Assembly (NCBI GenBank): GCA_030615855.1
Contig: JAUWYL010000002.1
Coordinates: 1,526 to 65,525, forward strand
Length of the DNA: 64,000 bases
Direction of reading: 5' to 3'
Origin: a bacterium
GTDB lineage: Bacteria > UBP18 > UBA7526
The stretch's first letter is position 1. Each line of letters opens with the position of its first letter. Below are positions 3,372 through 9,551 of the stretch, in pieces. Under the pieces are notes generated by a model. The model was given only the letters and a program-made list of their open reading frames with translations, did not search any database and had not been told where the DNA came from. The position numbers and the translations under genes were made by a program.

Positions 3372-4256
3372 TTAGATCCTTTCTCCAGCCCTGAGTTTTG
3401 CACTTCGCGAACGGGGATTCGTTCTTATTTCCTCTTCCCGGGGAGTAATGGGCTTCTTGGTGAGGATTTTTAGCCTTCCCTGGCAGGCAAATTCCTTGAA
3501 AGAGTTCTTTACTATGCGGTCCTCTAAGGAATGGTAAGAGATAATAGAGATTCTTCCCTTTTTCTTTAAGGAGTCCACTGCCTGGGGCAGGGCCTCCTTT
3601 AGATTCTCCAGCTCCCTATTTACTTTAATGCGTAGGGCCTGAAAGGTCCTGGTGGCGGGATGGATCCTTCCCCGGTAAGGAACGGCCCTTTCAATGATCT
3701 CTGCCAATTGACTAGTAGTAGTAACTGGCCCCTTCTCCCTTTCCCTTACAATTGCTCTTGCGATCCTCTTCGCCCACCTCTTTTCCCCAAACTCATAGAT
3801 TATATTCTGTAAGTCTTCATAAGAGGTTCTATTAACTAAGTCTGAGGCATTAATCTTCTGGGCCTTATCCATGCGCATATCCAATGGGCCCTCTTTCAAA
3901 AAACTGAAACCCCTCTCCTTTCTTGAAAGTTGTGCGCTGGAGACCCCAAGGTCAAATAGAATCCCATCCACCTTCCCTATTCCTTTCTCTCTTAGTATCT
4001 TCTCTAAATTTGTGAAGTTGCCCCAGACCAGGATCACCCTCTTCCCAAAGGAGGCTAGGCGCTTCCTCGCCGCCACAAGAGCATCTTGATCCTGATCGAT
4101 TCCCAAAAGGATACCAGCTGGCCCCAGATTCTCAAGAATTTTTTCTGCATGTCCTCCCTCCCCTATGGTGCAGTCAACAATTATCTTATTCTCTTCTTTG
4201 AGGTTTAAATATTCTATTACCTCATTTAATAGGACCGGTACATGTTCTATATTCAT
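3372..4256 (-). CDS. rsmH: 16S rRNA m4C1402 methyltransferase RsmH (MraW)
   Basis: HVPVLLNE, DCTIGEGGH, DLGVSS, GPLDMRMD, HPATRTFQALRI, SYHSLEDR, NPRSRSAKLR motifs. Confidence 0.97.
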   Translation of the reverse strand: MNIEHVPVLLNEVIEYLNLKEENKIIVDCTIGEGGHAEKILENLGPAGILLGIDQDQDALVAARKRLASFGKRVILVWGNFTNLEKILREKGIGKVDGILFDLGVSSAQLSRKERGFSFLKEGPLDMRMDKAQKINASDLVNRTSYEDLQNIIYEFGEKRWAKRIARAIVREREKGPVTTTSQLAEIIERAVPYRGRIHPATRTFQALRIKVNRELENLKEALPQAVDSLKKKGRISIISYHSLEDRIVKNSFKEFACQGRLKILTKKPITPREEEIRTNPRSRSAKLRAGERI

Positions 4257-4269
4257 TACATAAAATAGG

Positions 4270-4400
4270 CCTCACTCCGTTCGGCAGGACGTAGATTCAA
4301 ACAGATGTGAGCGGATTCATACGGACTCTTTACTGACTATTTTATCCGTTTACATCTGCCATAATCCGTTTGCATCCCTTCTTTATAATCTGTGATTAGA
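4270..4400. repeat. Intergenic repeat cassette (CGGAT/CAGAT arm, ATCCG/ATCTG arm)
   Basis: acagat..gcggatt..acggact opposed by atccgtt..atctgcc..atccgtt..atctgtg; CCTCACTCCGTTCGG near the rsmH start. Confidence 0.6.
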
Positions 4401-4454
4401 CGAGTCAAGCGGGGCGCGTCGTCATAATTTATTCAAATTCTGGAGCTGTAAAAT

Positions 4455-4477
4455 AAAAAAGCCCCCTTATCGGGGGC
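4455..4477 (-). terminator. Intrinsic terminator-like hairpin after mraZ
   Basis: Minus strand GCCCCC-GATAA-GGGGGC followed by TTTTTT, 5 nt after the mraZ stop. Confidence 0.6.
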
Positions 4478-4482
4478 AGAGA

Positions 4483-4914
4483 TCATATTCCCAGATCTAC
4501 TAACTTCTGAGCGATCTCCTCAAAGGATCTCTCGCTTCTCTCTAAGTATTCCTCCCAGCTCCTCTTTGCCCAGATCTCGATCCTATTCAGGGCACCGATA
4601 ATGACTACTTCTTTCTCGATTCGGGCGTATTGGGCGAGGGGTTTGGGAATGAGGAGGCGACCCTGTCTATCCAATCTGGACTCTACTGCTCCTGAAACCA
4701 GAAGACGTAAGAAGCTGCGCGCCTCCCTCTGGGCCATGGGGAGTTCTCTAATCTTCTTCTCTAATCCCTTCCATTCATCCAGAGGATAGAGGAAGAGACA
4801 CCTGTCCAGACCGCGGGTAAGAACAAAGGGGGTAATCTTCTTTCCCCTTAGTTTTGCTGGTAGGACGAGGCGGCCTTTCTGGTCTAGAGAGTATCTATAC
4901 TCCCCTAAATACAT
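4483..4914 (-). CDS. mraZ: Transcriptional regulator MraZ
   Basis: Two SpoVT/AbrB-like repeats (LDQKGRLVLP, LDRQGRLLIP), TRGLDRCLFLYP, NRIEIW; heads the dcw cluster. Confidence 0.97.
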   Translation of the reverse strand: MYLGEYRYSLDQKGRLVLPAKLRGKKITPFVLTRGLDRCLFLYPLDEWKGLEKKIRELPMAQREARSFLRLLVSGAVESRLDRQGRLLIPKPLAQYARIEKEVVIIGALNRIEIWAKRSWEEYLERSERSFEEIAQKLVDLGI

Positions 4915-5084
4915 CTTGCACCCCGAAAAATCCGCCGAAGGCGGACTACGGGGTAGACCCGTGGTCGCAAAGCGACTTTACGGGTCACCCCAAAGGATGG
5001 CCCCTCTCGTAGGGCCCCTCTCAATATATCTTAACCCCCGGAGCCCAATGGGCTCCGGGGGTGCCCAGGACTAATTAATTAAGA

Positions 5085-5110
5085 CCCACTTTCTCCCACT
5101 TTTTCCCACT
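5085..5110 (-). promoter_or_regulatory. MraZ-binding direct repeats
   Basis: Three GTGGG boxes with 10-bp period on the minus strand (AGTGGGAAAAAGTGGGAGAAAGTGGG) just downstream of the promoter, the known MraZ operator layout. Confidence 0.8.
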
Positions 5111-5118
5111 CGCTGAGT

Positions 5119-5147
5119 ATGATATACCACAAAAACCCATTTGTCAA
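5119..5147 (-). promoter_or_regulatory. Sigma70-type promoter of mraZ/dcw
   Basis: TTGACA (5147-5142), 17-bp spacer, TATCAT (5124-5119). Confidence 0.75.
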
Positions 5148-5168
5148 GTCTTTTTTTAAAAAATTTTT

Positions 5169-5200
5169 AAAAAAGAAGGCCCCGAGCAATCGGGGCCTTC
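5169..5200 (-). terminator. Intrinsic terminator of rnpB
   Basis: GAAGGCCCCGA-TTGC-TCGGGGCCTTC then TTTTTT directly after the RNase P RNA 3' end. Confidence 0.88.
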
Positions 5201-5201
5201 T

Positions 5202-5606
5202 GAAGTAGATCTATAAGCCGGGTCCTGTAAACGCTGATTACCGCAGATTTTTAGCGCTGATTACCGCAGATTAAATCCGCGGCCTTCTGCGTATCGATCC
5301 GCGTAAATCCGCGTCTCGATGATCATTTGTCTAGTCCGACCATTACTGGACGGATCAAGCAGCCAACCCGGGAATAATAACGAGACGGGCCGTCTCTCTC
5401 CCTCTATTTGGCCTTGCTCCGCGTAGAGATTGCCTCGTTTCACCCCTCCCCGGCAAAAATCGGGGAGGACTCGTCTCTGTGGCTCTTATCCGTCCGTCCC
5501 TTTTGGGGACGGAGACGGGTGTTACCCGCTACGCTGCCCTGTGGAGCCCGGACTTTCCTTCCGTCCGTCATACTTATGACGGACGGACGATCATCCGATC
5601 TACTTC
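5202..5606 (-). ncRNA. rnpB: RNase P RNA, type A, with an enlarged P19 region
   Basis: P1 pairing GAAGTAGATC/GATCTACTTC, conserved GGAAAGTCCGGGC, GGGTGAAACG, AATCTCTACGCGGAGCAA and 3' ACAGGACCCGGCTTATA; own promoter and terminator. Confidence 0.95.
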
Positions 5607-5612
5607 ATAAAT

Positions 5613-5641
5613 ACTATATCATAAAAAGGAGGATTTGTCAA
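5613..5641 (-). promoter_or_regulatory. Sigma70-type promoter of rnpB
   Basis: TTGACA (5641-5636), 17-bp spacer, TATAGT (5618-5613), 6 nt before the RNA 5' end. Confidence 0.82.
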
Positions 5642-7105: not shown

Positions 7106-7182
7106 TGGTGGGCGCAGAAGGATTCGAACCTTCGACCTCTGCCATGTGAGGGCAGCACTCTAACCTACTGAGCTATGCGCCC
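7106..7182 (-). tRNA. tRNA-Val(CAC)
   Basis: GGGCGCA...TGCGCCC-A-CCA acceptor stem, anticodon arm CTGCC-CTCACAT-GGCAG, TTCGAATC T-loop; 77 nt. Confidence 0.95.
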
Positions 7183-7185
7183 GAA

Positions 7186-7344
7186 ACACTGATTACCGCT
7201 GACTTTAACATGGGGGGGTAAGGAGGTAAACCACGCCCCTCGTAGAGGAGCGTGGGTAAACCCTCTCTACCTTTTCTAACCCCTTTCACCCTTCTAGCAT
7301 ATATCTGCGATCATCTGCGTTTTGATCTGTGTCAATCTGCGTCT
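7186..7344. repeat. Repeat cassette in the tRNA spacer
   Basis: ctgattaccgctgac arm opposed by atctgcgatcatctgcgttttgatctgtgtcaatctgcg; internal GGTAAAC units around hairpin CACGCCCCTCGTAGAGGAGCGTG. Confidence 0.6.
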
Positions 7345-7420
7345 TGGTGGGCCCTGAAGGATTTGAACCTTCGACCGACGGATTATGAGTCCGTTGCTCT
7401 AACCACTGAGCTAAGGGCCC
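7345..7420 (-). tRNA. tRNA with CAT anticodon, probably tRNA-Ile2 (lysidine-modified)
   Basis: 76 nt, G1-C72 pair (not initiator), anticodon loop CTCATAA; overall sequence resembles E. coli-type tRNA-Ile2 (GG.CCCTTAGCTCAGTGGTTAGAGCA..GACTCATAAT); elongator Met cannot be excluded. Confidence 0.88.
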
Positions 7421-9389: not shown

Positions 9390-9550
9390 AACGCTGATAC
9401 TTAATGCACTTCGTTTGCCTTAAGATGTTGCCGCTGATATAGTGCGCAGATTGCCGCTGATAATCTGCGGTCATTGCTTAATATTTATGCTCTCTCGGAT
9501 GCCAACGAAGCGCATCCGGCATCTGCGTTTTGATCTGCGGTCATCTGCGT
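9390..9550. repeat. Intergenic repeat cassette (CGCTGAT/CGCAGAT arm, ATCTGCG arm)
   Basis: cgctgata..cgctgata..cgcagat..cgctgata opposed by atctgcgg..atctgcgt..atctgcgg..atctgcgt; internal hairpin CGGATGC..GCATCCG. Confidence 0.7.
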
Positions 9551-9551
9551 A

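Follow-up and report, generated by a model that had tools for sequence, protein, structure and literature searches.

How did 89 nt of a dispersed repeat come to lie within the gene for an essential ribozyme, and what has become of them there? [quoted passage not shown] We compared this locus with five UBP18 relatives (G001–G005) and two metagenome contigs (L059 and L062). The comparison establishes where the insert lies, which repeat family it belongs to, that it is the derived state and that it persists in a second population. We consider it probable that the 89 nt are a complete '4+4' heptamer cassette that replaced a 16-nt P19 hairpin in a UBP18 sub-lineage, and that the cassette was then tolerated, retained and selected as a helix.

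Results

An intact type A RNase P RNA with a long P19

Aligned to the Rfam bacterial type A model (RF00010), the check put forward in the original prediction, rnpB covers model positions 1–367 without truncation, scores 210.9 bits (gathering score, 100; cmscan; Table 1) and places the insert in the P19 slot. An intact core goes together with a lack of P13/P14: where RF00010 has 43 positions from J12/13 to the 3′ strand of P11, the CM alignment shows 1 nt. The same two helices are missing from all four UBP18 rnpB genes (G000, G001, G003 and G004), which keep the other parts of the specificity domain. Such variation falls inside type A, of which rnpB remains a member. Both P4 strands, with CR-I and CR-V (GAGGAAAGUCCGGGCUCC ... 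ACAGNACCCGGCUUA), align with high posterior probability and are invariant in the four UBP18 genes. The flanks of the gene are collinear on one 144-kb contig, and synteny is conserved with G001, including a tRNA pair ~1.5 kb upstream.

rnpA was found in four relatives (G001–G004), and the UBP18 lineage can therefore be taken to use an RNA-based RNase P, that is, an RNA–protein enzyme. Neither rnpA nor rpmH (L34) was found in the G000 assembly (93.6% complete); since rpmH is missing too, the absence of rnpA is likely an assembly gap, and both genes probably belong to an unassembled locus. The 16S and 23S rRNAs and the small SRP RNA were likewise not found in the G000 assembly, in which the tmRNA is of normal length. 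Searches for rnpB in the G002 and G005 assemblies returned cassette look-alikes only.

The 89 nt had been placed at 5229–5317, between two conserved segments and at the P19 position, and this placement is exact to the nucleotide: GATGATCATTTGTCT corresponds to 5318–5332 (the complement of AGACAAATGATCATC), TAAGCCGGGTCCTGT to 5214–5228 (the complement of ACAGGACCCGGCTTA), and the gap between them is precisely 5229–5317. In the CM alignment the gap comes out as inserted bases, with the closing strand of P2 on one side and the 3′ strand of P4 on the other: the place of P19. Judged as a P19, the insert lies between AAUGAUCAUCG and ACAGGACCC, with a predicted helix that closes at its first and last bases; the borders of the cassette are exactly those of P19, the helix beginning right after ...CAUCG and ending just before ACAGG. 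That P19 is variable and dispensable is borne out by its range elsewhere. The AAUG anchor lies 95 nt from the P4 3′ strand in G000 versus 10–45 nt in the 30 other type A genes of a 31-gene sample, and RNase P RNAs that lack P19 have a 4-nt linker at this point, with P19 expansions described in the PVC group and Methylacidiphilum (PMC9945441).

Table 1. Features of rnpB, its P19 cassette and related arrays (window positions unless a contig is given; contigs are those of G000)
Feature	Position	Strand	Description and basis
rnpB, bacterial type A RNase P RNA	5198..5606	(-)	409 nt; cmscan RF00010, 210.9 bits, E 5.6e-67
Promoter-like site of rnpB	5613..5641	(-)	TTGACA, 17-nt spacer, TG-TATAGT; 11/12 matches; ends 7 nt before RNA 5′ end
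Intrinsic terminator	5174..5201	(-)	12-bp stem then U run; directly 3′ of P1 3′ strand
J18/2 and P2 3′ strand (AGACAAAUGAUCAUC)	5318..5332	(-)	5′ border of cassette; CM alignment; nearly invariant in relatives (n = 4)
Repeat cassette at P19 position	5229..5317	(-)	89 nt; two inverted four-unit arms, long imperfect hairpin; sequence, unit parse, fold, HMM
5′ arm (RNA)	5275..5317	(-)	(G)AGA CGCGGAU uua CGCGGAU cgaua CGCAGAA ggc CGCGGAU; nhmmer 5272-5315, HMM positions 2-45, E 3.5e-5
Apical loop UUA	5272..5274	(-)	Innermost unit pair GAU-uua-AUC; MFE structure
3′ arm (RNA)	5229..5271	(-)	AUCUGCG gua AUCAGCG cuaaaa AUCUGCG gua AUCAGCG uuu; nhmmer 5229-5273, HMM positions 1-44, E 9.8e-8
P4 3′ strand / CR-V (ACAGGACCCGGCUUA)	5214..5228	(-)	3′ border of cassette; CM alignment; invariant in relatives; 31/31 in L059
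Composite cassette, whole spacer between tRNA genes 7348-7420 and 7109-7182	7186..7344	(-)	Four-unit arm, ~100 nt hairpin-rich filler, two-unit arm
Composite cassette, same heptamer family, protein-gene spacer	9390..9550	(-)	Arm HMM, unit parse
tRNA-adjoining arrays in G000	7109-7420; C3:20802-20917, C29:13839-13976, C30:122662-122797, C43:23783-23959, C45:14659-14768		

The insert is a complete copy of a dispersed heptamer family

Read along the RNA strand, the insert runs from AGA through the four units of the 5′ arm, the loop uua and the four units of the 3′ arm to a terminal uuu (unit by unit in Table 1). Each arm is a set of four CRCNGAT heptamers at offsets 0, 10, 22–23 and 32–33 (spacings 10 / 12–13 / 10), with neighbouring units 3–6 nt apart. 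The description of CGCGGAT and CGCAGA units opposed by two direct copies of AATCTGCGGTAATCAGCG proved real on parsing: the 3′ arm contains both copies as 18-mers, in a 23-nt direct repeat (family D6). The window contains 10 copies of a two-unit motif, CRCNGATNNNCRCNGAT, three of them inside the insert; the count in 100 shuffles is 0.00.

We built a profile HMM from 35 four-unit arms elsewhere in G000, with the rnpB cassette excluded from the building. It matches both arms of the insert over their full length (Table 1), and finds 126 arms in G000 at E ≤ 1e-3 and 0 in a shuffled genome. The same model recovers arms at 7301–7343 (7.9e-10), 9520–9551 (4.5e-5) and 9428–9463 (3.4e-4), confirming at arm level that the insert and the repeats at 7186–7344 and 9390–9550 are of one family, as had been proposed. 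The layout of the rnpB cassette is that of the 'CGC-type' cassettes at C23:14053, C29:13920, C14:38698 and C30:187434. Altogether G000 holds 166 arrays with at least three units; hairpin order (CRCNGAT...ATCNGYG), which the rnpB copy follows, occurs 58 times versus once for the opposite order. The four-unit pattern is present in five of six UBP18 genomes at 9–42 copies each (reversed-pattern control, 0), and it gives a single match among 395 non-UBP18 bacterial genomes. That lone array, at G399:C33:63172–63212, may be due to chance or may be a trace of the family.

Placement of the family in G000 is strict (for example, at C30:87106–87570 and C23:21443–21522). CRCNGAU arms (transcript sense) begin 0–3 nt past the upstream stop codon (median 2), AUCNGYG arms stop short of the following start codon by ~16–21 nt, which puts their end just 5′ of the ribosome-binding (Shine–Dalgarno) site, and complete cassettes occupy entire spacers. 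Genes appear bracketed by inverted arms. Beside tRNA genes the register is equally tight: for 6 of the 38, an array lies exactly 3 nt from the called end of the tRNA, five times at the 3′ end and once at the 5′ end. In the window the 3 nt between tRNA and cassette (7345–7347) are an encoded CCA. The inter-tRNA cassette at 7186–7344 has 85% identity with its counterpart in G005, of another genus (G005:C98), and G001 (C111) has unrelated hairpins at that place. This cassette, shared with G005 and not with G001, and the rnpB identities given below point either to fast turnover of the modules or to a G001 contig or genus grouping in need of re-examination.

A short P19 is ancestral and was replaced whole

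The P19 of G001 (CCCCGAUUUAUCGGGG), of G003 (CCCCGACUUUGUCGGGG) and of L062 (CCCCGCUUUAUCGGGG) is in each case a hairpin of 16–17 nt, and CCCCG/CGGGG-like P19 hairpins are also found in the rnpB genes of unrelated phyla. For these reasons we regard the short P19 as ancestral and the 89-nt P19 as derived. The original prediction had made P19 in relatives its touchstone, with a repeat-free relative bearing the same long P19 as the adverse case; in G003, from another genus, there are 0 four-unit arrays and the P19 is short. G001 is a congener of G000 by automated genus grouping only, and the rnpB of G000 is ~95% identical to that of G004 versus 87% to that of this nominal congener, so that any statement of 'same genus, no cassette' rests on the automated grouping.

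The cassette recurs in an independent metagenome contig, L059, where 82 of 86 positions are identical, without indels, next to an rnpB 3′ core that is identical at 31 of 31. Since its sequence begins 3 nt within the cassette and continues to the P4 and P1 strands, L059 confirms the 3′ junction only. Because L059 carries it too, the cassette is not an assembly error; it persists in a second population. Between these two cassette-bearing sequences, the only ones available for the count, there are four differences, three of which are compatible with pairing or improve it and one of which breaks a pair. Downstream of rnpB, the mraZ leader (window ~4150–5170) differs from that of L059 by large indels of hairpin modules, with rnpB and its cassette conserved.

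What arrived at P19 did not split the older hairpin. No remnant of the ancestral CCCCGA/UCGGGG stem is left at the G000 P19, and the insert has no target-site duplication (its flanks are ...CAUCG and ACAGG...) and does not qualify as a MITE; from the lack of both remnant and duplication we conclude that the hairpin was replaced. No near-identical donor copy was found in G000, whose best other cassettes are 69–81% identical to the insert (loosely scored blastn), and a search of the 93.6%-complete genome for RAYT (IS200/IS605-like Y1 transposase, PF01797) gave 0 matches, with control genomes positive. The original reading is supported, with two refinements to its wording that the repeat had 'invaded' the ribozyme: the family copy took the place of the whole hairpin instead of landing within it, and the mobility that 'invaded' implies is not borne out, there being no duplication, RAYT or near-identical donor. 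The most likely route of entry would be an exchange with another cassette at a hairpin, by recombination or template switching, rather than cut-and-paste transposition.

Other members of the phylum have enlarged different helices. In the rnpB of G004 (G004:C97, within 493–935; alignment columns 149–238) a ~90-nt sister cassette replaces P12, with four CACGGAU units opposite four AUCUGUG and a G·U on the RNA strand in every unit pair. At the P19 site G004 has two small GC hairpins instead of one. Hairpins of this kind (YCSCC-loop-GGSGR) are ~3.5-fold enriched in G004 over a reversed control, some of them in adjacent pairs, which suggests another dispersed module. G003 and L062 have an extra ~50–60 nt of non-heptamer sequence in the P15–P17 region (alignment columns 278–381), differing between the two.

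The rnpB cassettes fold better as RNA

Folded alone, the insert reaches −41.1 kcal/mol (z = −5.5), a value equalled by 0 of 200 shuffles. In the predicted fold of the full-length RNA, 29.7 expected pairs lie inside the cassette versus 0.95 between cassette and core, in line with the self-contained stem that had been anticipated, and the helix is mismatched in two of its four unit pairs. From these features we propose the following course. The '4+4' cassette, once exchanged for the ancestral 16-nt hairpin between the P2 and P4 3′ strands, would be transcribed together with the ribozyme from the promoter of rnpB itself. It would fold on itself into an imperfect helix of ~35 pairs, predicted to extend P19 away from the catalytic core, and would be tolerated because P19 is an optional, peripheral element. 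(The type B structure has P19 stacked on P2/P3.) Since its arrival the cassette may have been kept by selection for RNA pairing, a step suggested by G·U pairs of the RNA strand that correspond to A·C in the antisense.

This last step can be approached through the two strands of each cassette. The RNA strand of the rnpB cassette folds to −40.4 kcal/mol versus −30.6 kcal/mol for its antisense, because two unit pairs are G·U on the former and A·C on the latter. The L059 cassette (−33.9 versus −28.9) and the P12 cassette of G004 (−40.9 versus −25.2) lean to the same side. For comparison we used 47 hairpin cassettes of G000 lying between co-directional genes, the genes being called crudely from ORFs: the more stable fold is that of the sense strand in 18 and of the antisense in 24 (p = 0.44), and the idea that cassettes are generally optimised on the RNA strand is rejected on these figures. 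Ranked by sense bias against the 47, the G000 rnpB copy comes second and the G004 P12 value lies beyond all of them, the latter being set against the G000 distribution and not that of its own genome. As both rnpB cassettes are strongly sense-biased and the intergenic ones unbiased, we argue for selection on the RNA helix. The two independent cases are suggestive of a cassette that became part of the folded RNA and came under a pairing constraint.

Alternative readings of the insert

A pairing constraint of this kind would be equally expected of a processing signal, and the cassette might be transcribed only to be excised or nicked, with RNase III cutting the long duplex or RNase E the spacers rich in A/U. 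The result would be a ribozyme in two pieces, of ~290 nt and, carrying the P4 and P1 strands, a 3′ piece of ~30 nt, held together by P1, P2 and P4. Such a fate has a precedent in Thermodesulfatator indicus, in which an expansion segment in P12 is excised in vivo to leave a fragmented RNase P RNA (Goessringer et al., RNA 2023, PMC9945441). G000 encodes an RNase III (C27:38256–38639, 125 bits), and most of the long cassette hairpin is double-stranded; its helix is, however, broken by mismatches and internal loops every 7–10 bp. Cleavage would give a very short 3′ fragment bearing the essential P4 strand, and the STRR heptamers in cyanobacterial P12 are described as part of the RNA gene. On balance we think cleavage unlikely, and prefer a replacement hairpin retained in the RNA.

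A second alternative gives the long P19 a function for which it was gained: bracing a ribozyme that lacks P13/P14, binding a lineage-specific protein that recognises the heptamers, or pairing with similar cassettes in the leaders and trailers of pre-tRNAs to recruit substrates. The first of these draws on the lack of P13/P14 in four of four UBP18 rnpB genes and on the enlargement of three different peripheral helices in different members; however, G001, G003 and L062 manage with a 16–17-nt hairpin on the same P13/P14-less core, and a choice of helix that varies by genome resembles opportunistic insertion. For the second, no candidate binding protein was found. The third builds on the arrays that lie exactly 3 nt from 6 of the 38 tRNA genes, from which it follows that pre-tRNAs would carry complementary arms, but intramolecular pairing of the cassette should outcompete pairing in trans. 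A function would also suit the RNA-strand pairing bias of the rnpB cassettes and a cassette in L059 that is free of indels while nearby spacers turn over. We regard a helix gained for its function as very unlikely, well behind cleavage and further still behind the simple replacement of P19.

That the helix grew in place by slippage or duplication and only resembles the family, or is an assembly chimera at a repeat, is hardly credible: the ancestral stem CCCCGAU/AUCGGGG does fit the unit pattern CNCNGAU, the insert has its 23-nt internal direct repeat, G000 lacks a donor copy of >81% identity and L059 breaks inside the cassette, but both arms match the profile of the other copies over their full length and with the family spacing of 10/12–13/10, the 2+2 layout of units is a property of the whole family rather than of a local duplication, and the ancestral stem is wholly gone. 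A chimera is opposed by the 144-kb contig, which contains the two rnpB flanks collinearly and in synteny with G001, and by an independent metagenome that has the same 3′ junction. Phyla that lack the repeats commonly have CCCCG/CGGGG P19 hairpins, and the likeness of the ancestral stem to a unit pair is therefore probably coincidental. We also considered that stem as a proto-unit or a decayed cassette and found this unsupported, the same hairpin being present in unrelated, repeat-free phyla.

Replacement of P19 by a family copy could itself be one instance of something wider. UBP18 might possess a hairpin-swapping repeat system, in which no RAYT-type transposase has been found, that exchanges whole hairpins one for one in spacers and in structured RNA genes (P19 of rnpB here, P12 in G004); in rnpB the exchanged hairpin would have been reshaped by selection into an RNA helix, and it may be cleaved to give a split ribozyme. 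We put this forward as speculation, and doubt rather than expect that it holds in full.

Discussion

The UBP18 genes show, as a natural experiment, which sites of an essential ribozyme accept foreign sequence and how much of it they take. One and the same core without P13/P14 bears a 16-nt P19, an 89-nt P19 or a ~90-nt P12, depending on the member of the phylum. The difference between strand-neutral intergenic cassettes and RNA-biased rnpB cassettes offers a computational handle on the passage from selfish repeat to functional RNA. Were cleavage to prove true, this would be the second natural fragmented bacterial RNase P RNA.

Among known systems, natural P19 elements (type B and some type A) are likewise dispensable hairpins between the P2 and P4 3′ strands. 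Those in our sample are short (10–45 nt from anchor to P4 versus 95) and are not copies of a dispersed repeat. The P12 segment of T. indicus is similarly a lineage-specific extension of a peripheral helix, of ~70–90 nt, missing in the closest relative; unlike the UBP18 cassette, it is not reported as a dispersed repeat, and its excision has been demonstrated in vivo.

Small dispersed palindromes offer a second set of comparisons. With the REP/BIME and REPIN elements of proteobacteria the family shares its dozens to hundreds of short, imperfect intergenic palindromes, made of inverted halves and lying in convergent or co-directional spacers. It differs from them in that no RAYT was found in G000, in arms built of phased heptamers and in strict placement relative to stop codons and Shine–Dalgarno sites; to our knowledge, no REP has been reported inside rnpB. 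The palindromic elements of Rickettsia and the Correia elements of Neisseria are small palindromes that sit in tolerant sites of essential genes, also in frame within proteins, as lasting neutral passengers; terminal inverted repeats and a TA duplication mark the Correia elements. The UBP18 cassette differs from both in the organisation of its sequence and has no duplication. No report of a Rickettsia palindromic element within RNase P emerged from a search of the literature.

The closest parallel lies in heterocyst-forming cyanobacteria, whose RNase P RNA reportedly carries STRR heptamer repeats in P12, arranged head to tail in tandem with no spacers. There, as here, a genome-wide, lineage-specific heptamer occupies a peripheral helix of rnpB and lengthens it with the core untouched, and the UBP18 cassette of G004 even sits in P12. 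In G000, by contrast, the site is P19, the units are spaced (7 + 3 nt, four per arm) and form two inverted arms, the whole hairpin has been replaced, and both sequence and phylum are different. The UBP18 insert is thus analogous to STRR in rnpB and not a member of that class. The work concerned (Vioque, Nucleic Acids Res 1997, on STRR heptamers in rnpB) appears among the references cited in PMC2858038. A dispersed repeat inside a peripheral helix of rnpB is a rare but known kind of event, and the P19 of UBP18 is a clear further example. To STRR in P12, the one classical case, it adds a second phylum, a second helix and a different repeat architecture.
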